Shown here one piece after another: positions 21,389 through 53,359 of a stretch of DNA of 64,000 nucleotides (positions are counted from its first letter, which is position 1; every line of letters begins with the position of its first letter). The position numbers and the translations under genes are program-made. Location of the stretch: the sequence record PZ026127.1; one strand, 5' to 3'. The notes under the pieces were generated by a model that was not told where the DNA came from, ran no database searches, and saw only the letters and a list, made by a program, of their open reading frames with translations. The DNA is from a phage.

Positions 21389-21412
21389 AAGGAGCCACAA
21401 AGCTCCTTTTTG
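21389..21412 (+). terminator. intrinsic terminator
   Basis: AAGGAGC-CACAAA-GCUCCUU hairpin followed by UUUUUG after IP gene. Confidence 0.7.
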
Positions 21413-21428
21413 TATCTAAACAAAAGGT

Positions 21429-21460
21429 GTTTACTTTCCTGGATAGCCGTGATACTATAG
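21429..21460 (+). promoter_or_regulatory. T4-type early promoter cassette (GTTTAC -35, TACTAT -10)
   Basis: GTTTAC at 21429, 16-17 bp spacer, GATACTATAGCCCTATCAA core shared with 9 other cassettes. Confidence 0.65.
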
Positions 21461-22804: not shown

Positions 22805-22875
22805 GGCCCTGTAGCTGGACGGTCGAGCGAGCGACTCATAATCGCTGGATGGTGGTTCGATTCCACCCAGGGCCA
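22805..22875 (+). tRNA. tRNA-Met (anticodon CAU; could also be a lysidine-modified Ile reader)
   Basis: hand fold: 7-bp acceptor GGCCCTG/CAGGGCC, anticodon stem AGCGA/TCGCT with loop CTCATAA, T-arm GGTGG-TTCGATT-CCACC, discriminator A. Confidence 0.85.
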
Positions 22876-23587: not shown

Positions 23588-23662
23588 GTCCCGCTGGTGT
23601 AATGGATAGCATACGATCCTTCTAAGTTTGCGGTCCTGGTTCGATCCCAGGGCGGGATACCA
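23588..23662 (+). tRNA. tRNA-Arg (probable anticodon UCU), CCA encoded
   Basis: hand fold: acceptor GTCCCGC/GCGGGAT (one G-U), T-arm CCTGG-TTCGATC-CCAGG, anticodon loop CTTCTAA, 3' ACCA; anticodon stem has one mismatch. Confidence 0.7.
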
Positions 23663-24606: not shown

Positions 24607-24692
24607 AACTTAGAGAAATATATGAAACTTTTAAAATAAAGCTATGTTAGCCTTCCATGTAAACCCGTTCCGGTTCTACAAGAACTGATTCT

Positions 24693-24722
24693 AGGCCCTT
24701 CCGAAAGGTTGGGCCTTTTTTG
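24693..24722 (+). terminator. intrinsic terminator (duplicate of the 24045 module)
   Basis: AGGCCC-UUCCGAAAGGUU-GGGCCU + U7; shares CCCTTCCGAAAGGTTGGG with 24048-24066. Confidence 0.7.
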
Positions 24723-24745: not shown

Positions 24746-24776
24746 GTTTACTCTTTCGTAGAACATGATACTATAG
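24746..24776 (+). promoter_or_regulatory. T4-type early promoter cassette
   Basis: GTTTAC at 24746, -10 TACTAT at 24769, shared TGATACTATAGACCTATCAA core. Confidence 0.65.
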
Positions 24777-24809
24777 ACCTATCAAAACAACAGTGTGAAG
24801 GAGAGTAAA

Positions 24810-25073
24810 ATGGATAATTATGGTGAAGTGTTTAATTTCTTTATGAAATGTGTTCCGGAAGAATTTGGTGCTACAGTTAACGATATTAAAGTTATCGGTC
24901 CTGAACACCCAGTGTATGAAACCTATGCAGTAATGGGTAATGAAGATGGACAGTGGTATACAATTAAAGTTGTGATTAATATGTTCTCAGCTGAAGGCTA
25001 CGCCAAATCGTCTACCAAAGTTTACCATGATAACGATTTTGATGCGGAAGATTATTTCAATAATATGAAATAA
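24810..25073 (+). CDS. hypothetical protein
   Basis: 87 aa from ATG 24810 (ORF-track start is a GTG); AGGAGAG RBS. Confidence 0.55.
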   Translation: MDNYGEVFNFFMKCVPEEFGATVNDIKVIGPEHPVYETYAVMGNEDGQWYTIKVVINMFSAEGYAKSSTKVYHDNDFDAEDYFNNMK

Positions 25074-25131
25074 AATGTTTACATGGGCCCATGATTAAGA
25101 TATTATGAGCCCATAATTTGAGGAGAACATA

Positions 25132-25530
25132 ATGAATATCGAAGATAAAGAAATGCAAGAGTTGTATAATTCATTAACACCTGAACAACAAAAATATGCC
25201 AAAGAATTAGAGAAAGCCCTTGCTTTCAACTTGGCAAAAACTGATTGGGCCGCGATGTATGAAGAAAAAACTAGATTAGAACTTGAAGCTGCTGAGAGAA
25301 ATGAATGGATTGTCGAAACCAAGATTTCTGATGGTGGTTGCTCTGTTGAGGTGTCTGCTGTAATTAAAGGTACTCATGGCGAAAAATCATGGGGCTGGCA
25401 TAATGAAACAAACAAATGTATTGTTCTCTCAACGTCAAAAACTTATGGCCAAAGGGCCCCTGTATCCAAAGCTATTATTAAGCAAGCTCAATGGGAAGCC
25501 AATGAAATCTGCCTCGCAAAAATGAAATAA
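25132..25530 (+). CDS. hypothetical protein
   Basis: 132 aa; RBS GAGGAGAACATAATG. Confidence 0.6.
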   Translation: MNIEDKEMQELYNSLTPEQQKYAKELEKALAFNLAKTDWAAMYEEKTRLELEAAERNEWIVETKISDGGCSVEVSAVIKGTHGEKSWGWHNETNKCIVLSTSKTYGQRAPVSKAIIKQAQWEANEICLAKMK

Positions 25531-25534
25531 AAGT

Positions 25535-25564
25535 GTTTACAAACCTCAGAGGACAGGGTATAAT
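25535..25564 (+). promoter_or_regulatory. sigma70-type early promoter (TTTACA-17-TATAAT)
   Basis: GTTTACA at 25535, 17-bp spacer, TATAAT at 25559; 7-bp inverted repeat GAGGACA/TGTCCTC brackets the -10. Confidence 0.7.
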
Positions 25565-25606
25565 GTCCTCATGGATTATAAATCTTAATCAACTGAAGGA
25601 AATACT

Positions 25607-26200
25607 ATGAACACTTTAAAGAAAATCGTTGAATTCATCCGTTCTAAACTGGGTACCGCAATGACTCAGAACCTGTCAATCGAAGACCAATACACCAAAG
25701 CGGCTTCTACCCTGATTGATAAAATCACTGAACTCCAGACTGCCCATGTTAAGTCTGTGAATGAAGAAAAACGTATTCGTGCTTTGGCTAATGAAAAAGA
25801 CCAGCTCGCTGCTTCTAAAGAACGCGAAATTCGTAAACTGATTGCCGAAGGCGCTGATGTCCAGGTACATGCTAAACTTGGCCTCCTTTATCGTCGTACA
25901 GCTACTCAGCTTCGTAAGAAAGCCGATGATTATATCGAAATGCGTAATGAAATTAAACTGAAGGTTAAGGAACTTGATGACTCTCGTCAGGAACTGGCTG
26001 TTAAGCTCGAGTACATCCGTGAAACTCGTAATATGGCTGCCCTTGGTATTGCTACTGCCGATGATGTTGTTGAAATCGCTGCACTGACTAAGATTGATAT
26101 TGAAGACACCCTACTGCGTGTAGAAACGTTTAAAGGCCCACAAGTTGGAATGGATACGACTTCTGCTGATATCGAAGACTACATTAATTCACTTAAGTAA
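25607..26200 (+). CDS. coiled-coil protein, possibly PspA/IM30-like
   Basis: 197 aa, continuous heptad-like charged pattern; family assignment tentative. Confidence 0.5.
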
Positions 26201-32263: not shown

Positions 32264-32293
32264 TATAAATACCTCCTATACTCAGGAGGTATT
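32264..32293 (+). promoter_or_regulatory. late promoter TATAAATA embedded in SD-sequestering hairpin upstream of e
   Basis: TATAAATA 32264-32271; 10-bp stem 32268-32277 / 32284-32293 pairs AGGAGG SD; same layout as the known T4 lysozyme translational control. Confidence 0.8.
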
Positions 32294-32782
32294 ATGGATA
32301 TTTTTGATATGTTACGTCAAGACGAAGGTCTTGATTTAAATCTTTATAAAGACACTGAAGGTTATTGGACTATTGGTATTGGCCAATTGATTACTAAGAA
32401 CCCATCTAAAGACGTTGCTCGCGCTGAACTTGATAAGCTTATGGGTCGAGTTTGTAATGGTCGTATTACTATGGCTGAAGCCGAACAACTCTTTAACCGG
32501 TCGGTTGAAAATGCTCGTAGAGCTATTCTGCGTAATCCTAAATTGAAACCTGTTTATGATGTATTGGACGAAGTTCGTCGTTGTGCTTTAATTAACATGG
32601 TCTTCCAAATGGGTGAAGCAGGTGTAGCAGGGTTCACTAACTCTTTACGTATGCTCCAACAGAAACGTTGGGACGATGCGGCAGTTAACCTGGCTCAATC
32701 CCGTTGGTATAAACAAACTCCAAATCGTGCTAAGCGCGTGATTTCAACATTTAAAACCGGCACATGGGCTGCTTATAGATAA
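32294..32782 (+). CDS. e: endolysin (T4 lysozyme e)
   Basis: 162 aa; [26 protein letters not shown]...[31 protein letters not shown] matches T4 lysozyme; catalytic E11, D20, T26 present. Confidence 0.95.
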
Positions 32783-32869: not shown

Positions 32870-33466
32870 ATGAAAACGTATAAAGAATTTATCGCCGAAG
32901 CTTCTGTAGGAAAGGTCCAAGGCATTAATAAAGATGAGTGGACTTACAAAGGAAACGGCGTTGACAACCCAGGAAACGGTTTTGACGCTAAAACAGCTCC
33001 TATTGAACGGTATTTAGCTACAAAGGCTTCCGACTTTAAAGCTTTCGCCTGGGAAGGACTTCGCTGGCGTAACGACCTAAATATTGAAGCTGATGGACTT
33101 AAATTTGCCCATATCCAAGATGTTGTTGCTAGTAACTTGGACGCAGCTTTTGTTAAAGCTGACGGTGACCTTCGTCGCTGGAATTTAAAACTGTTCTCTA
33201 AACAGAAAGGTCCTGTATTTGTACCTAAAGCAGGTAAATGGACTATTGATAATAAATTGGCTAAGGCGGTCAACTTCGCCGGTCTTGAATTTGCCAAGCA
33301 TAAATCCGCATGGAAAGGTCTTGATGCAATGACTTTCCGTAAAGAATTTGCCGATGTTATGGTTAAAGGCGGCTTTAAGGCAGAGATAGATACCTCTAAA
33401 GGTACGTTTAAAGACGCTAATATTCAGTACGCTTACGCCGTTGCTAATGCAGCCCGTGGTAATTAA
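32870..33466 (+). CDS. ipIII: internal head protein IPIII-like with capsid-targeting sequence
   Basis: 198 aa (T4 IPIII about 194); N-term MKTYKEFIAEA with IAE cleavage motif; between e and denV. Confidence 0.7.
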   Translation: MKTYKEFIAEASVGKVQGINKDEWTYKGNGVDNPGNGFDAKTAPIERYLATKASDFKAFAWEGLRWRNDLNIEADGLKFAHIQDVVASNLDAAFVKADGDLRRWNLKLFSKQKGPVFVPKAGKWTIDNKLAKAVNFAGLEFAKHKSAWKGLDAMTFRKEFADVMVKGGFKAEIDTSKGTFKDANIQYAYAVANAARGN

Positions 33467-33491: not shown

Positions 33492-33542
33492 GTTTACATC
33501 TCCTGTAGTCATGATACTATAGACCTATCAACTACAGGAGAT
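33492..33542 (+). promoter_or_regulatory. early promoter cassette with SD-complementary spacer
   Basis: GTTTAC 33492, -10 TACTAT 33515; 11-nt ATCTCCTGTAG (33498-33508) is exact reverse complement of CTACAGGAGAT (33532-33542) containing the denV SD. Confidence 0.7.
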
Positions 33543-33548
33543 TAAAAA

Positions 33549-33956
33549 ATGACTCGTATCAACCTTACCTTAGTATCTGAATTGGCTGACCAACACTTAA
33601 TGGCTGAATACCGTGAACTCCCACGGATTTTTGGTGCGGTTCGCGAACGTATTGCCAAAGGGCAAGGCTTCTCTGATATCCCTAAAGACTTCCGCCTTGG
33701 TGCAGGGCACGTCAAGTTCTTTTATGACAAAATTGGATTTTTGTTCTTGCGACAAAATGCAATAATTGAGGAACTTCTGAAGCGTGGTTACCAGATTCAA
33801 AATACCCATGTAGACGTAGCGGATATTCCATTACGGCTCATGAACGATTTCACCCCATCCGAAGCTGATATAGCTTTAAGCCAAGCTCGTCTGGACGAAA
33901 AAATTGCACAGCGTCCTACCTGGTACAAACATTACGGCAAGGCTATTTACGCTTAA
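33549..33956 (+). CDS. denV: endonuclease V, pyrimidine-dimer DNA glycosylase
   Basis: 135 aa; [26 protein letters not shown]...LGAGHV.FFYDK...[24 protein letters not shown] matches T4 DenV. Confidence 0.95.
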
Positions 33957-36293: not shown

Positions 36294-36344
36294 GTTTACA
36301 TCTCCTGTAGACGTGGTACTATAGACCTATCAACTACAGGAGAT
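36294..36344 (+). promoter_or_regulatory. early promoter cassette with SD-complementary spacer
   Basis: GTTTAC 36294, -10 TACTAT 36317; ATCTCCTGTAG (36300-36310) complementary to CTACAGGAGAT (36334-36344) containing the regB SD. Confidence 0.7.
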
Positions 36345-36350
36345 TACAAA

Positions 36351-36809
36351 ATGTCAGAAATTAATTCAGAAGTATTCATCCGCCGCAATAAATTACGTCG
36401 TCAGTTCGAAACCGAATTCCGTGAACTGAATACGTCCATCAAAAAAGCCGCCATCAAGAGCGGAGTCCCAGCCTTCTTTATTAAGTACTCTAATCACTTG
36501 TTGGACCGTGCTATCCAACGTGAAATCGACGAAAAATACGTTTTTGCTTTATTCAAGCAACTCCATAACCATGTTAAAGAAATTCATGAATTTTTAATCC
36601 AGGAACCTCTACCTGATGTAGAATCCGAAATTGTCCCTGGTAAAGTGTATCGTCCATTGCGTCTCGAAATTACCGATAAAACCTTATGGCTAGGTATGAC
36701 AGTAGACCGTAAACATCCTGATAAAGGATATTCCCTTAAATGTCGTATGGCATTTGTTAACTCTAAACGTTTAGAAGGTAAAACCAGCACGAAAGTAATC
36801 TATCTTTAA
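36351..36809 (+). CDS. regB: endoribonuclease RegB
   Basis: 152 aa; ...EVFIRRNKLRR.FE.EFR.....I..........YS.HLLDRAIQREIDE.YVF.LF... matches recalled T4 RegB (153 aa). Confidence 0.9.
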   Translation: MSEINSEVFIRRNKLRRQFETEFRELNTSIKKAAIKSGVPAFFIKYSNHLLDRAIQREIDEKYVFALFKQLHNHVKEIHEFLIQEPLPDVESEIVPGKVYRPLRLEITDKTLWLGMTVDRKHPDKGYSLKCRMAFVNSKRLEGKTSTKVIYL

Positions 36810-40172: not shown

Positions 40173-40175
40173 TCA

Positions 40176-40204
40176 AAGGTCTCACTTCGGTGGGACCTTT
40201 TTTC
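40176..40204 (+). terminator. intrinsic terminator
   Basis: GGUCUCAC-UUCG-GUGGGACC (8-bp stem, one G-U) followed by U6. Confidence 0.8.
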
Positions 40205-40212
40205 GTTTAGGT

Positions 40213-40243
40213 GTTTACATCCTCTAGGAACATGATACTATAG
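40213..40243 (+). promoter_or_regulatory. T4-type early promoter cassette
   Basis: GTTTAC 40213, -10 TACTAT 40236, TGATACTATAGACCTATCAA core; 9 nt after terminator (PeSL-like). Confidence 0.7.
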
Positions 40244-40269
40244 ACCTATCAACTAATGAGGAGAACAGT

Positions 40270-40506
40270 ATGAAACTTACAAGTACTACGGTTTCATTAG
40301 AATATGAAATCAACGGTCGTATCCTTGAGATTAAGATATTCGACGACCGAAGTATCTTCGCTGATTATCGAGGATACAGAATTCGTCTAGAAAAGGACGA
40401 GCTCAAGGAACCATGGCTCCTTAAAGACACATTAAAGGGTTGTGGATGTAAACTGAAGACTACCCAAGCCCAAGAATTAATTTCTACTATCAACAAATAC
40501 TGGTGA
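40270..40506 (+). CDS. hypothetical protein
   Basis: 78 aa; RBS GAGGAGAACAGTATG. Confidence 0.55.
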   Translation: MKLTSTTVSLEYEINGRILEIKIFDDRSIFADYRGYRIRLEKDELKEPWLLKDTLKGCGCKLKTTQAQELISTINKYW

Positions 40507-43060: not shown

Positions 43061-43082
43061 AAAAGGCCTTCGGGCCTTTTTT
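43061..43082 (+). terminator. intrinsic terminator
   Basis: AAGGCC-UUCG-GGCCUU followed by UUUUGGG directly after the NTase-like gene. Confidence 0.8.
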
Positions 43083-43101: not shown

Positions 43102-43132
43102 GTTTACACTCTCGTAGAGCATGTTATTATGG
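43102..43132 (+). promoter_or_regulatory. T4-type early promoter cassette
   Basis: GTTTACA 43102, 16-bp spacer, TATTAT 43125; 20 nt after terminator (PeSL-like). Confidence 0.65.
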
Positions 43133-43167
43133 ACCTATCAAATCTACTGAGTGAAATGGAGAATATA

Positions 43168-44148
43168 ATGTTAACTATCAAAATCAACAAAGGTGTCTAT
43201 CGCGGTAATGAAATCTCTGGTACGTTCATGAGTTCAGGTAAAACCTGGTTCCCTAATAAAATTCATGAATCTGAAGCTCACCTCGGTGATGGTAAGGTAT
43301 TCGTACAGATTGATGGTGTTGAACGTGGTGTATGGGTATTCAAATCTGATATCGAAACCGAAGGTGCTGAAGCTCCTGTAGTGGTTACCGAATCTTCTGA
43401 AGAAATGAAACACCGCATCAACAAACGTTTTAAAGTAATGAACATGATGACTAATGGAATCATCGATGGTAAAATTCGTTCCCTTATCATCTCTGGTGCC
43501 GCAGGTATTGGTAAAACATATTCTTTGGATAAAGCATTACAGAATGCCCACGAAAATGAAACTATCGAATATAAATCAATCAACGGAAAGATTAGTGGAA
43601 TCGGTCTTTACGAGCAGCTTTGGAATAACCGCGGCCCTAATAGTGTTCTTCTTATTGATGATGTTGATGTATTCTCTGATATGGATATCCTGAACCTGTT
43701 AAAAGCAGCATTGGATACCGGTGAAAAACGTAAGGTGTGCTGGAGCACTTCAAGTTCTTACCTCGATGATAAAAATATCGATAAAGAATTCGAATACGAA
43801 GGCACCATCGTGTTCATCACCAACGTTGATATCGACCGTGAATTAGAGCGCGGAACTAAACTTGCTCCACACCTCCAGGCTTTAGTATCTCGTTCAGTTT
43901 ACTTAGACCTCGGAGTTCACTCTAACGAAGAGATTATGGTCCGTGTTGAAGACGTTATCCTGTCCACTGATATGATGCAAAACCGTGGTCTGACTGATGC
44001 CGAGACTTATCAAGCACTGTCCTGGATGAAGGCTAATGTATCTCGTCTTCGTAACGTATCATTACGTACAGCTCTTTATCTGGCGGACTTCATTGCCACC
44101 GATAAAAATGACTGGAGCGAAATCGCTGAAGTTACACTTCTGAAATAA
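43168..44148 (+). CDS. AAA+ ATPase
   Basis: 326 aa from ATG 43168; Walker A GAAGIGKTYSL, Walker B VLLIDDVDVF, sensor-1-like IVFITN. Confidence 0.65.
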   Translation: MLTIKINKGVYRGNEISGTFMSSGKTWFPNKIHESEAHLGDGKVFVQIDGVERGVWVFKSDIETEGAEAPVVVTESSEEMKHRINKRFKVMNMMTNGIIDGKIRSLIISGAAGIGKTYSLDKALQNAHENETIEYKSINGKISGIGLYEQLWNNRGPNSVLLIDDVDVFSDMDILNLLKAALDTGEKRKVCWSTSSSYLDDKNIDKEFEYEGTIVFITNVDIDRELERGTKLAPHLQALVSRSVYLDLGVHSNEEIMVRVEDVILSTDMMQNRGLTDAETYQALSWMKANVSRLRNVSLRTALYLADFIATDKNDWSEIAEVTLLK

Positions 44149-44502: not shown

Positions 44503-44553
44503 GTTTACATCTCCAGTAGAAATGATACTATAGACCTATCAACTACTGGAGGT
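44503..44553 (+). promoter_or_regulatory. early promoter cassette with SD-complementary spacer (compensatory variant)
   Basis: GTTTAC 44503, -10 TACTAT 44526; ATCTCCAGTAG (44509-44519) pairs with CTACTGGAGGT (44543-44553); paired G/A and C/T changes relative to the 33492 and 36294 copies. Confidence 0.7.
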
Positions 44554-44557
44554 TATC

Positions 44558-45082
44558 ATGAACGCTAAAGATATTTTTTCACTGATTAATTTCAACAACG
44601 GTAATTTCAAATCTGAAAAACAAAGCAAGTTCTTTAACGACGTTGCTTGTGGTAATGAGATTACCGTATCTGGAGGAGAGATTTACAAAAGCCGTTGGAA
44701 CTGGATTGTTATCATCGATTCAGTTGGTATTGTAGAGCTCTATAAAAACACTAACAAAAAACGTACTCTTCACTGGAGTCGTGAAACCAATCAAGCTTAT
44801 CAAGCTGAACGTAACAAACGTTTAATGCCTACCGAATCTGACCTGGCAAACGTTAAATCTGATATCGCTTATTTCGATAATCTGATTGCTGAACAACAAG
44901 CAGTTATTGATAAGTTTGACGAAATCAAAGCTTGTAAAGAGATTCCTGAATTTATGCGGGAATCAGTAAACGAACAGTACGCCCTCACTTCAGGTCGTAT
45001 CGAGCAGTACAAATCACAACGAGCTGAACGCCAAGCTCTGCTTCATAAATTTGAAGAGCGTTTAAAGACGGTTCTCGCATAA
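44558..45082 (+). CDS. hypothetical protein
   Basis: 174 aa ORF. Confidence 0.55.
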   Translation: MNAKDIFSLINFNNGNFKSEKQSKFFNDVACGNEITVSGGEIYKSRWNWIVIIDSVGIVELYKNTNKKRTLHWSRETNQAYQAERNKRLMPTESDLANVKSDIAYFDNLIAEQQAVIDKFDEIKACKEIPEFMRESVNEQYALTSGRIEQYKSQRAERQALLHKFEERLKTVLA

Positions 45083-47078: not shown

Positions 47079-47108
47079 GTTTACATCCAAGGATGGATGG
47101 AGTATAAT
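47079..47108 (+). promoter_or_regulatory. sigma70-type early promoter (TTTACA-17-TATAAT)
   Basis: GTTTACA 47079, 17-bp spacer, TATAAT 47103. Confidence 0.7.
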
Positions 47109-47134
47109 CTTTTAAATCTACTGAGGAGAATATC

Positions 47135-48145
47135 ATGACTCGTACTGAATACATCAATGCCTTTACTACGTATATCACTACCAACACCCCTCCGTTAACC
47201 CCATACGAGGTAATAGTTTCTAATATCAATAAATGGGTCGACCAAATTGATGATGCATTATCGCGCTGTTTCAAAGCTGAAATCGAAAAGATTGCAGGCC
47301 GTTTGTGCATTCATGATATCATTAAAACATTTAAAGGTTCTCGACTGCTTTCGCGCCTGGTCAATAAGGACATCCTTTCTGAGTTCGGTAAAGAGAAATA
47401 TCCAGGTTCCAACCGTGTTGTTAGCTACAAATGGTTTGGTGATACCATAAAAGGTTATATCAAAATTAAAGGTATGGACCCTAATAGTTTATTTCCGCAA
47501 CGTTGGGTTAGCGAATTCAAGGCTAACTCTGCATTAATTCTCAAAGCGGCCTCTAAAACTATAGTTTCCGGTGATTGTCGTACTATTCACCCGATGGCTA
47601 ATTGCATGATTAAAACAAATAGTTATAAAGGAAAAGCTATTATTTCTGTTATTTGGTCACCTAATAGGAAACCTAAAGATGATGTGGAAGTTGTAAAGTA
47701 TCAAGATATTGCTTACGATACCTTGAATACTATCGAACAAGCTTTAGCTCTGATGGATACCGTAGAGAAATATGAGACCCAAGAAGTTAAACACCACTTA
47801 GGCTGGAAAGGATATGAAGTCTTAGTAACAGTCCGTGAAATCAAATGTACCGTTCCAAAAACTGATGCTGAAATTTACCAAGAAAAATGTGAGGAAATTG
47901 TGAACACTGATAAAGAGCCTGCTACATTAGAAGATTTGATTAACGACTTGAACAGCCCTATCATGGCCCCTACACCAATTACTAAATCCAAGTTACCGGA
48001 AATCGTGGCCTTAGAAAAAGCGTATAAAGATGCCCTTGCTATTAACAAAAAACTGACTGGGCAATATACCGCTGCCAAGAAACTTTGGGAAGAGTCTACC
48101 AATCGTTTAGACCGTCTTGAACAAGCTCTGGAGCTGTTGAAATGA
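47135..48145 (+). CDS. hypothetical protein with C-terminal coiled coil
   Basis: 336 aa; RBS GAGGAGAATATCATG. Confidence 0.6.
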   Translation: MTRTEYINAFTTYITTNTPPLTPYEVIVSNINKWVDQIDDALSRCFKAEIEKIAGRLCIHDIIKTFKGSRLLSRLVNKDILSEFGKEKYPGSNRVVSYKWFGDTIKGYIKIKGMDPNSLFPQRWVSEFKANSALILKAASKTIVSGDCRTIHPMANCMIKTNSYKGKAIISVIWSPNRKPKDDVEVVKYQDIAYDTLNTIEQALALMDTVEKYETQEVKHHLGWKGYEVLVTVREIKCTVPKTDAEIYQEKCEEIVNTDKEPATLEDLINDLNSPIMAPTPITKSKLPEIVALEKAYKDALAINKKLTGQYTAAKKLWEESTNRLDRLEQALELLK

Positions 48146-51833: not shown

Positions 51834-51885
51834 GTTTACTTCCTCTCCTCACGTGTTATAGTCTATCCTATCAACACATGAGGAG
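51834..51885 (+). promoter_or_regulatory. early promoter cassette with SD-complementary spacer
   Basis: GTTTAC 51834, -10 TATAGT 51857; CTCCTCACGTGTT (51845-51857) complementary (12/13) to AACACATGAGGAG (51873-51885) containing the SD. Confidence 0.65.
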
Positions 51886-51891
51886 AACATT

Positions 51892-52074
51892 ATGACTATC
51901 CAAGATAAAGAAATTAAAGCCGACCAGTATTATTTGGTAAATGGGCGTGCGGTTCGTGTAATTGCTGCTAGCGATTCAGACGTATGGTACCGTGTACTAG
52001 ACCATAGAAATATTCCATTGATGGTATGTGACCGTAGTTTGTTTTGTTCGATAGCTAAGGAAATTAAATTATGA
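51892..52074 (+). CDS. hypothetical protein
   Basis: 60 aa; RBS GAGGAGAACATTATG. Confidence 0.5.
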   Translation: MTIQDKEIKADQYYLVNGRAVRVIAASDSDVWYRVLDHRNIPLMVCDRSLFCSIAKEIKL

Positions 52075-52327: not shown

Positions 52328-52621
52328 ATGGGTAAAACTATTCGTCGTAAAGAATTGTCTGTAAAAGATTTTTATTATTCCGGACGTCGTAAAGCACCGG
52401 ACGGCGTAAGTCAGGAACTGGTTGAAGAAAATATCTTCCGTTCCGACAAGTGGAAACGTATGCGCGGTGTTGATTCTGAAGTTAAGAACGAAATGAACCG
52501 CCAGCTTCGTAAAGAAGTGAGAAAGCTGAAAAAAGATGTTTACAATGACGATGAACCTGATTACAATACTTCTCATCGAGTTGCAAAACGTAAATCAAAC
52601 GAATGTTATCGTTATAGCTGA
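52328..52621 (+). CDS. hypothetical basic protein
   Basis: 97 aa ORF, K/R-rich. Confidence 0.5.
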   Translation: MGKTIRRKELSVKDFYYSGRRKAPDGVSQELVEENIFRSDKWKRMRGVDSEVKNEMNRQLRKEVRKLKKDVYNDDEPDYNTSHRVAKRKSNECYRYS

Positions 52622-52628
52622 GGAAAAT

Positions 52629-52760
52629 ATGAATATCAAACGAATGCTTTTTAAGCAAGGACTATACACTTTAAATGTTAGTCCAAAGGGCGATACAACC
52701 ACGTGGTCAGTAAATGACTGGATTAAATTCATTGATAAACACGGAAACTGGAAAATTTAA
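52629..52760 (+). CDS. small hypothetical protein
   Basis: 43 aa from ATG 52629 after GAGGAAAAT. Confidence 0.35.
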   Translation: MNIKRMLFKQGLYTLNVSPKGDTTTWSVNDWIKFIDKHGNWKI

Positions 52761-52961
52761 ATGAATCCTGAATCTAAATTATCACAGCGAATTGCTGAAG
52801 CTCGTCGTCAGTTCTTTGAAAATATGATAGCCCAAGGTATTGATGACGAAGTTTTTCTGAACTGGTTTTGGAACCACAAATATTCAAGTTGTTCAGGCGC
52901 TTTATTAATTTCAGCTGCATCTATGTACGAAGGCTGGAAAGGTGCAATGAGTCAAAAATAG
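52761..52961 (+). CDS. hypothetical protein
   Basis: 66 aa ORF. Confidence 0.45.
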   Translation: MNPESKLSQRIAEARRQFFENMIAQGIDDEVFLNWFWNHKYSSCSGALLISAASMYEGWKGAMSQK

Positions 52962-52990
52962 TTTACAAACTCTTGGGACCAGAGTATAAT
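52961..52990 (+). promoter_or_regulatory. sigma70-type early promoter (TTTACA-17-TATAAT)
   Basis: GTTTACA 52961, TATAAT 52985; inverted repeat GGGACC/GGTCC brackets the -10. Confidence 0.7.
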
Positions 52991-53029
52991 GGTCCTACGG
53001 ATTATAACTTTAAAACTGAGGAAATTATT

Positions 53030-53359
53030 ATGTCACAAGCTATTAAAAACGTACTGAACTCTTTCGCTTTCGATAAAGTAAACGAACTGATGAATACCGG
53101 TTTTGTGACTCCTCAGGTTCTTGACCAATGGGTTGCTGAACTGCTGCCAATCATGCACTCTAAAGACCAGAAAATTGGTAAGAACGGTATTCGTGAAATC
53201 CTGGTTCAATATATCCTTGATGAATTCGATGTCGCTGCCTTTGGTGTTGAATCCAAAGCTTGGTGCCCTGGTGAAATCACGGATAAAACTATCCGTCGTA
53301 TGAAAAACCAACGTAAGAAAAAATTCGTTGACCTGAAAATTGTTAAGGCAGCGAAATGA
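53030..53359 (+). CDS. hypothetical protein
   Basis: 109 aa from ATG 53030 after GAGGAAATTATTATG. Confidence 0.55.
   Translation: MSQAIKNVLNSFAFDKVNELMNTGFVTPQVLDQWVAELLPIMHSKDQKIGKNGIREILVQYILDEFDVAAFGVESKAWCPGEITDKTIRRMKNQRKKKFVDLKIVKAAK

Follow-up and report, generated by a model that had tools for sequence, protein, structure and literature searches.

Why should the spacer of an early promoter be complementary to the Shine-Dalgarno (SD) sequence of the gene behind it? The question is raised by a 64,000-nucleotide stretch of phage DNA (record PZ026127.1; 'the window' below is this whole stretch), in which four early-promoter cassettes, starting at positions 33492, 36294, 44503 and 51834, precede denV, regB and homologues of nrdC.8 and 55.6. 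The window comes from a T4-like myovirus of the Dhakavirus (JS98/WG01) group and is ~97% identical to Shigella phage PSD9 (WG01 and QL01 are further relatives). The region is the equivalent of T4 e-ipIII-denV-regB-vs-tk-nrdC-pin-55, and early transcription follows the + strand. The original prediction, made from the sequence alone, was that RNA read through from upstream would fold the SD into a hairpin with the spacer, and that RNA started at the cassette's own promoter would lack the 5' arm and be translatable. We now consider it fairly probable, judging from predicted folds and comparative analysis, that the four cassettes are promoter-gated translation initiation regions, in which the spacer of the early promoter would double as an anti-Shine-Dalgarno arm in the RNA.

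Spacer pairing and predicted folds

All four cassettes lie on the + strand and share a common layout, i.e. GTTTAC as -35, a 17-nt spacer, a TAnnnT -10 with TG before it, and GGAG and ATG 20-30 nt further on. In each spacer, 11-14 nt at its 5' end are reverse-complementary to the stretch that includes GGAG, and GGAG is present in 4/4 of the 3' arms. In cassette 1 (33492-33551), which precedes denV (33549-33956), the -35 (33492-97) and the 5' arm ATCTCCTGTAGT (33498-33509) are followed by the -10 TACTAT (33515-20), a predicted +1 at ~33527 and the 3' arm ACTACAGGAGAT (33531-42), with GGAG at 33537-40 and ATG at 33549; the arms form a 12-bp Watson-Crick stem. Cassette 2 (36294-36353) precedes regB (36351-36809, + strand; identity from the PSD9 annotation) and has its -35 at 36294-99, 5' arm ATCTCCTGTAG at 36300-10, -10 at 36317-22, predicted +1 at ~36329, 3' arm CTACAGGAGAT at 36334-44 and ATG at 36351, giving an 11-bp stem. 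In cassette 3 (44503-44560), ahead of the nrdC.8 homologue (44558-45082, + strand), the -35 (44503-08), 5' arm ATCTCCAGTAG (44509-19), -10 (44526-31), predicted +1 (~44538), 3' arm CTACTGGAGGT (44543-53) and ATG (44558) follow the same order, and the stem has 10 Watson-Crick pairs and one U.G. Cassette 4 (51834-51894), ahead of the 55.6 homologue (51892-52074, + strand), differs from the other three in its arm sequence: its -35 (51834-39) is followed by the 5' arm TCTCCTCACGTGTT (51844-57), the -10 TATAGT (51857-62), a predicted +1 at ~51869, the 3' arm AACACATGAGGAGA (51873-86) and ATG (51892), and 13/14 positions pair around one C.A mismatch. The +1 of each cassette is a consensus prediction, 7 nt past the -10. 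With this start, the 5' arm lies entirely upstream of the transcript, GGAG lies inside the 3' arm, and the 22-nt hairpin loop holds both the -10 and the +1. The complementarity claimed in the original prediction is thus borne out (12 pairs, 11 pairs, 10 pairs plus one U.G, and 13/14 pairs), and the paired substitution to which it pointed at 44503 is real (T to A in the 5' arm, A to T in the 3' arm).

Shuffling of each spacer 20,000 times showed that pairing of this extent is not expected by chance: the longest Watson-Crick runs of 12, 11, 9 and 8 at sites 1-4 gave p = 1e-4, 5e-5, 1.4e-3 and 1.3e-2. At the remaining 11 early-promoter-like sites in the window the same test of spacer-SD pairing gave p >= 0.05. 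SD-pairing spacers are therefore found at 4/15 early promoters of the window, and the earlier choice of sites had caught every significant one and no false one. The open reading frames (ORFs) 5' of the cassettes end at 33466 (ipIII), 36289, 44500 and 51832, only 2-26 nt before the -35, and a terminator scan called none between the upstream ORF and the -35 at any of the four cassettes. Read-through into the cassettes must therefore occur.

We folded read-through RNAs of 110 nt, running from 40 nt 5' of the -35 to ATG+14; all structural statements here are thermodynamic predictions. The SD stem appears in both the minimum free energy and the centroid structures, with z-scores of -3.76, -3.50, -3.20 and -3.57 for sites 1-4. 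At all four sites, RNAs that begin at the predicted +1 have hardly any structure (-1.4 to -2.3 kcal/mol, z +0.1 to +0.3; cassettes 2, 3 and 4 at +0.14, +0.26 and +0.15), and for cassette 1 the read-through fold of -25.8 kcal/mol compares with -1.5 for its own transcript. The cost of freeing the SD was expressed as an opening energy, the ensemble free energy required for ATG-15..ATG+2 to be single-stranded, either in a read-through context of -120..+40 or in the promoter's own transcript. In PSD9, an annotated near-twin of the window phage, this energy drops from 21.0 kcal/mol in the read-through context to 3.4 in the own transcript at denV, from 13.1 to 4.5 at regB, from 19.0 to 2.8 at the nrdC.8-like gene and from 18.1 to 2.8 at the 55.6-like gene. 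Positive controls lie in the same range (T4 e 15.4, T4 gene 49 15.6 and PSD9 e 14.1 kcal/mol), and two further implicated genes, segB (17.6) and I-TevII (12.3), are also high. RNA folding, which had been proposed as a check, therefore agrees with burial of the SD in read-through RNA (z -3.2 to -3.8, against ~0 for own transcripts), and the claim that own-promoter transcripts lack the 5' arm holds for the predicted +1, with SD opening falling from 13-21 to 2.8-4.5 kcal/mol in PSD9.

Co-evolution of the arms and upstream terminators

T4 itself carries the feature. Its denV has the same cassette (GTTTACATCTCCTGTAGG...CTACAGGAGAAC), and stops at the T4 denV promoter have been seen by primer extension (PMC1702504). 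T4 regB has a quite different 15-bp pairing (TTTTCCTCTTGACTG/CAGTTAAGAGGAGAA, two G.U pairs), and nrdC.8 pairs GTTCCTCTG with CGGAGGAAC (one G.U); opening energies at the same four genes are 16.7 (nrdC.8), 16.1 (regB), 11.3 (denV) and 7.8 kcal/mol (55.6). A census of 30 early-promoter genes, obtained by scanning three T4 early regions with a threshold of >= 10 kcal/mol for a gated gene, returned ten: alc (19.3), alt.-3 (18.4), nrdC.8 (16.7), regB (16.1), motB.2 (15.5), modB (14.9), ndd.4 (13.8), denV (11.3), 30.8 (11.3) and e.8 (10.4). About one third of T4 early promoters (10/30) thus occlude the SD. Nine of these ten genes fall to 0.3-4.9 kcal/mol in their own transcript, with motB.2 falling only to 9.6. 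By annotated function the gated genes include some with harmful products, namely the RegB RNase, the Alc transcription terminator and the ModB ADP-ribosyltransferase; RegB and ModB are classed as early in T4 proteomics (PMC9697503). Some of the T4 cassettes are duplicates. T4 alc and alt.-3 have a common promoter-plus-gate cassette (L172; T4 136278 and 123032), and nrdC.8 and ndd.4 have another (L048/L172; T4 53885 and 166749); judging from the cassette, ndd.4 would start at 166749, downstream of its annotated start (166764).

Upstream regions of all four genes were also taken from viral contigs (numbers prefixed L). These orthologues contain at least 12 unrelated arm pairs in two geometries. 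In the spacer-SD geometry of the window, examples are TCTCCTGTG/CACAGGAGA, TTCCTCCAAG/CTTGGAGGAA, ATCTCCGTTTG/CAAACGGAGAT and TTTCTCCTCTTTATG/CATAAAGAGGAGAAA. In the -10-SD geometry the 5' arm consists of the -10 hexamer and discriminator and the 3' arm spans the SD to the AUG, as in ATAGTAGCCT/AGGCTACTAT, TAGTGTTCTC/GAGAACACTA, ATGTCCTCCTA/TAGGAGGACAT and, with two G.U pairs, GATGTCTTCC/GGAGGGCATC. All strong helices have the end of their 3' arm no more than 8 nt upstream of the ATG and no more than 2 nt inside it. Since two geometries converge on the SD, and since the spacer-SD type tolerates a costly 22-nt loop, we argue that the SD is the target.

Consensus folding of 15 diverse cassettes with RNAalifold gave no structure, because the arms sit in different registers. 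We therefore used a register-free chimera test, in which the 5' part of each lineage (up to +1) is joined to the 3' part of every other. For 27 cluster representatives the mean opening energy was 12.7 kcal/mol for native combinations and 7.1 for chimeras (permutation p <= 5e-5), and the native partner ranked first of 27 in 11 cases. The same comparison within T4 found 10/30 native combinations reaching 10 kcal/mol against 6.4% of 870 chimeras (p <= 5e-5), and within the window 4/15 against 6.7% (p = 0.011). Where cassettes could be aligned in register, 96.4% of cells are paired, with U.G occurring three times; two pairs have changed on both sides (UA/AU and GC/UA) and one alternates between U-A and U.G. 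A variant of cassette 4 (L164) replaces two pairs by G.U wobbles, and across the arm pairs G.U outnumbers A.C mismatches by 17 to 7. The bias is also evident when the sense and antisense folds of -35..ATG are compared in 31 lineages: the sense fold is the more stable in 22 and the less stable in 8 (mean -17.5 vs -14.7 kcal/mol; Wilcoxon p = 0.0013). This asymmetry argues that the selected object is the mRNA and not a strand-symmetric DNA palindrome such as a cruciform, operator or recombination site.

The cassettes belong to a wider family, GTTTAC-N17-TACTATAGACCTATCAA, represented nine times in the window and by 69 unique contexts among its relatives. SD occlusion (>= 10 kcal/mol) occurs in 21/40 copies without an upstream terminator and in 0/29 preceded by a GC hairpin and T run; the Fisher test of this contrast (p = 5e-7) overstates independence, as the copies reduce to ~5 occluding and ~9 terminator-preceded loci, and the true significance is far weaker. 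The direction fits a gate that is not kept where a terminator stops read-through. The hairpins ahead of non-occluding copies are strong, often with a UUCG loop, and are followed by T runs. In the window, the + strand copy at 40213-40272 has weak 5-bp SD pairing, a terminator-like hairpin before it (40175-40200) and a read-through opening energy of ~7, no higher than its own transcript's. Two other + strand copies, at 43102-43170 (terminator-like hairpin at 43061-43080) and 24746-24812 (GC hairpin and T run at ~24684-24722; opening 4.2 vs 1.5), show no SD occlusion, nor does the copy at 21429, with a terminator-like hairpin immediately 5' (~21389-21413).

Other promoters of the family have inverted repeats that bracket the -10 clear of the SD, or no repeat. 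Repeats bracketing or within the -35/-10 and short of the SD are found at 25077-25132, 25535-25607, 52961-53030, 52538-52629 and 47079-47135, with arms such as ATGGGC/GCCCAT, GAGGAC/GTCCTC, GGGACC/GGTCC, CGATGA/TCATCG and ATCCA/TGGAT. Those at 25535 and 52961 are paralogues with compensatory arm changes, and T4 ipI, ipII, ipIII and mobD.2 have 9-13 bp equivalents; these sister hairpins, too, form only in read-through RNA. An initial transcribed sequence, (C)TATCAACTAC (+1 to +11), is conserved among many early promoters of the window phage and T4, well past the -10, and its CTAC is the base of several SD stems.

Two further observations concern exchange of the cassettes. Contigs L042 (307, - strand) and L158 carry a recombinant whose two arms come from different cassettes, CCATTAG (5') from one and CTACTGG (3') from the other; its stem is mismatched, with an opening energy of 13.1 vs ~17-19 kcal/mol, and its sequence suggests a recent crossover between the arms, of the kind expected from shuffling by PeSL elements (see below). 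The DenV protein of the window (33549-33956) is 96% identical to that of another phage lineage and ~68% identical to DenV of typical Dhakavirus contigs (compared: L067-L069 and L075-L078). Its 5' cassette is of the Dhakavirus/T4 type, and the lineage with the 96%-identical denV has a -10-SD hairpin instead, which points to a mosaic with a putative junction at or near the start codon.

A probable translational gate and its alternatives

Each cassette would act as a strong T4-type early (sigma-70) promoter. A polymerase arriving from the upstream gene would copy both arms, as no terminator intervenes, and the resulting 11-14 bp hairpin would bury GGAG and leave denV, regB and the nrdC.8-like and 55.6-like genes poorly translated from read-through RNA. 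A polymerase starting at the cassette promoter would begin within the loop and produce an RNA without the 5' arm, with its ribosome-binding site open. Early promoters are off within minutes (5 min at 30 °C; the regB promoter after 2-3 min) and transcription from upstream goes on (PMC3014915; PMC2988021), so a gate of this kind would confine synthesis to the immediate-early window. Translation of the gated genes is likely to be tied to the short period of early-promoter firing and to be insensitive to later delayed-early or middle read-through, an effect that would be the mirror image of the gene e gate discussed below. Early transcripts run into downstream genes and translation is needed against polarity, and Rho sites lie between the immediate-early and delayed-early genes of T4 (PMC2988021); Rho-dependent polarity would probably act on untranslated read-through RNA and in this way insulate the transcription units. 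GGAG within structured RNA is protected from RegB (PMC3014915), and the buried GGAG would probably be shielded in the same way. We infer the start sites, the translational block and these temporal, Rho and RegB consequences.

Several points weigh against a promoter-gated function. The transcript starts of the window phage are those predicted from the consensus, and the thermodynamic model behind the energies includes neither ribosomes nor co-transcriptional kinetics. Site 4 has a C.A mismatch in its stem, and sites 1-3 are near-identical paralogous copies of one repeated cassette, so that they do not count as independent; the independent evidence is the orthologues in other genera. Many of the orthologue sequences are themselves phylogenetically related, some of the regB, nrdC.8 and 55.6 orthologues lack SD pairing (L054-56, L151-153 and L168), and the terminator contrast must be discounted as noted above. 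Many sister promoters bracket only the -10, which means that some other hairpin function also exists. T4 denV mRNA has been treated as unstructured in work on RegB (PMC1702504), which is consistent with the short own transcript and gives no positive support. Finally, promoter-preceded genes as a class are not more SD-occluded than promoterless genes (Mann-Whitney p = 0.95 and 0.49). We therefore reject a general rule by which a proximal early promoter goes with stronger SD occlusion of its gene in read-through RNA; occlusion belongs to a gene-specific subset and not to early promoters in general.

A different account starts from PeSL elements, conserved and repeated intergenic cassettes of AT-rich upstream sequence, strong early promoter, stem-loop, SD and ATG that cluster in hyperplastic regions and take part in gene shuffling (Arbiol 2010, PMC2839356; Comeau 2014, PMC4122927). 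The stem-loop would then serve attenuation, termination or DNA-level recombination, and its overlap with the SD would be incidental to very short intergenic spaces. A repeated cassette family in hyperplastic regions (9 window copies, 69 contexts in relatives), the L042/L158 recombinant that joins the arms of two cassettes, the mosaic denV, sister promoters with -10-only repeats (window 25077, 25535, 52538 and 52961; T4 ipI, ipII, ipIII and mobD.2) and the report of RB49 PeSL stem-loops as terminators and recombination sites (PMC2839356) are all as this account would have it. Yet no T run follows the 3' arm, and an intrinsic (Rho-independent) terminator is rejected for the four hairpins by sequence criteria (22-nt loop, no U tract, none called by the terminator scan). 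The loop would be a poor choice if any hairpin would do, the 3' arm falls on the SD in two geometries, and orthologues of the same genes retain SD pairing by means of unrelated arms. Copies with a real upstream terminator have no SD stem, and the sense/antisense asymmetry does not suit a strand-symmetric DNA function, all of which makes the PeSL account rather unlikely to be the whole explanation of the SD pairing. An operator, bound by a dimeric protein that would switch early promoters off, would likewise act on DNA. The repeat is indeed centred on the -10 and +1, which it would bracket, and how early promoters are shut off is, according to a review (PMC3014915), not fully understood. The arms are wholly different between promoters and orthologues (at least 12 unrelated arm pairs), their spacing varies, and only the sense strand tolerates G.U wobbles; with no shared half-site and with this strand asymmetry we reject the operator, which we judge very improbable. 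Chance, or bare shared ancestry of duplicated cassettes without function, could appeal to the near-identity of sites 1-3, and is scarcely credible given the shuffle p-values, the compensatory changes, the chimera tests and the fact that orthologous genes have unrelated arm pairs.

Two further explanations accept the RNA hairpin and give it another primary role. SD-sequestering hairpins are a classical, textbook device of translational coupling, e.g. in RNA phages, and the SD on read-through RNA might be opened only by a ribosome that finishes the upstream ORF and melts the 5' arm. The upstream stop is indeed near the 5' arm at three sites (~10 nt at regB, 8 nt at the nrdC.8-like and 11 nt at the 55.6-like gene), with that of denV 31 nt before it. 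On termination a ribosome melts the RNA for only ~5-6 nt past the stop codon, which falls short of all four arms, and coupling is quite unlikely because the stops lie 8-31 nt away, beyond this reach. The gene e hairpin, moreover, has a similar layout and blocks translation ~100-fold despite upstream translation (PMC3014915). The hairpin might instead serve primarily to stabilise RNA, hiding the GGAG of internal SDs from RegB so that long polycistronic RNAs stay uncut. GGAG occurs in all four 3' arms, regB itself is among the gated genes, secondary structure protects GGAG from RegB (PMC3014915; PMC1702504), and the T4 denV SD is RegB-resistant in vivo (PMC1702504). That resistance, however, is ascribed to sequence 3' of GGAG and is reversed by changing it (PMC1702504), and the T4 regB SD is cleaved efficiently by RegB (PMC3014915). 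The own transcript, abundant early when RegB acts, would be left unprotected, and -10-SD stems bury the AUG too, as expected for a translational block and unnecessary for shielding. We consider RegB protection unlikely as the main function; it is probably a side benefit.

A wider extension of the promoter-gated reading to T-even phages is tentative, and we regard it as possible rather than probable. Under such a design rule about one third of early promoters, including the promoters in front of regB, alc and modB, which are immediate-early genes with toxic products, would encode an anti-SD arm in the spacer or -10 and so license translation only on promoter-proximal RNA, with read-through RNA untranslated, a Rho substrate and shielded from RegB. 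If true, the rule would give a cis-encoded explanation for part of the immediate-early/delayed-early problem with its Rho-dependent sites. A sigma-70 promoter spacer would do double duty as an RNA regulatory arm and genes would be translated only from their own transcripts, confining dangerous early proteins (the RegB nuclease, Alc, ModB and DenV) to the first minutes of infection and insulating in cis tightly packed transcription units that lack terminators. Some of the disagreement between how abundant an RNA is and when its protein is made in T4 omics data (PMC9697503) would also be accounted for. The PeSL stem-loops would in part be reinterpreted, the cassette being a portable promoter with a matched translational gate that works wherever recombination drops it; the same design could serve in synthetic operons. 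Since denV, regB, nrdC.8, alc and modB of T4 itself show the feature, the best-developed phage system allows a direct test of the hypothesis.

Comparison with known systems

The closest precedent is the gate of T4 e, soc, 49 and I-TevI, in which the SD or AUG lies in a helix on upstream-initiated transcripts and a promoter past the 5' arm gives a translated RNA (PMC3014915). The window carries the classical gene e version at 32264-32292, with the late promoter TATAAATA at 32264-71, arms ATACCTCC and GGAGGTAT, and ATG at 32294. The four cassettes share its layout: by thermodynamic prediction the SD is sequestered in upstream-initiated transcripts, the promoter is so placed that transcripts begin 3' of the 5' arm (at a predicted +1 within the loop), and opening energies are comparable (11-21 kcal/mol vs 15.4 for e and 15.6 for 49). 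The systems differ in their promoter. The late gp55 promoter TATAAATA makes the known genes 'silent early, on late', and it was not found within the four cassettes, where a sigma-70-type early promoter stands. The 5' arm here is this promoter's own spacer (or, in relatives, its -10), and the predicted behaviour is 'on only while early promoter fires'. The original prediction, that the logic of the lysozyme e hairpin is here applied to early promoters, is thus supported, with an e hairpin in the window and similar opening energies; the temporal effect would be the opposite. The T4 e and 49 hairpins are proven by experiment, and the four cassettes here are known from sequence and predicted folds.

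In their repeated motif (AT-rich upstream sequence, early promoter, SD and ATG), in having a promoter-associated stem-loop (5' arm in the spacer, loop containing the -10) and in their tie to gene exchange in hyperplastic regions (the L042/L158 recombinant and the mosaic denV), the cassettes resemble PeSL elements, whose stems are located 'between -35 and -10 or overlapping the -10' (PMC2839356). PeSL stems are described as local hairpins that act as terminators or attenuators and as recombination targets, with those of T4/PST drawn just 5' of the promoter, and neither PeSL paper speaks of spacer-SD pairing or gives the stems a part in translation. In the cassettes, by contrast, the 3' arm lies on the SD, the 22-nt loop includes the -10 and +1, there is no U tract, and by sequence criteria no terminator or attenuator is found.

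RNA hairpins also limit translation of the homing endonuclease genes Aeh1 mobE and T4 segB, I-TevII and I-TevIII (PMC3014915). Initiation on a potentially harmful nuclease gene is limited by a hairpin there too, but the 5' arm of these ribosome-binding-site hairpins is not described as an early-promoter element. A composite terminator-promoter is seen at denV of ~350-kb jumbo phages (L093-L096) and in L168, where the -35 (TTGACT or GTGTAC) lies in a GC-rich hairpin followed by a T run. Like the SD stems of the cassettes, this hairpin forms in read-through RNA only; unlike them, it is a canonical intrinsic terminator that stops read-through clear of the SD, and it is a different solution to the same read-through problem. 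An Rfam search of the window returned two tRNAs as its sole matches (genes at 22805-22875 and 23588-23659, + strand) and found no known RNA family at the cassettes.

Spacer-SD pairing at early promoters is not mentioned in the PeSL papers (PMC2839356, PMC4122927), the 2010 T4 reviews, Nolan 2006 or Durand 2006 (PMC1702504), nor was it met with in a full-text search, with isolated earlier mentions possible in the 2003 Microbiology and Molecular Biology Reviews (MMBR) T4 genome review or the pre-1995 literature (e.g. Liebig and Rueger 1989). The logic of the gate and the PeSL-type cassette are both already known; what appears to be new here is the pairing of the SD with the spacer or -10 of an early sigma-70 promoter, and the opposite timing that is predicted to follow from it.

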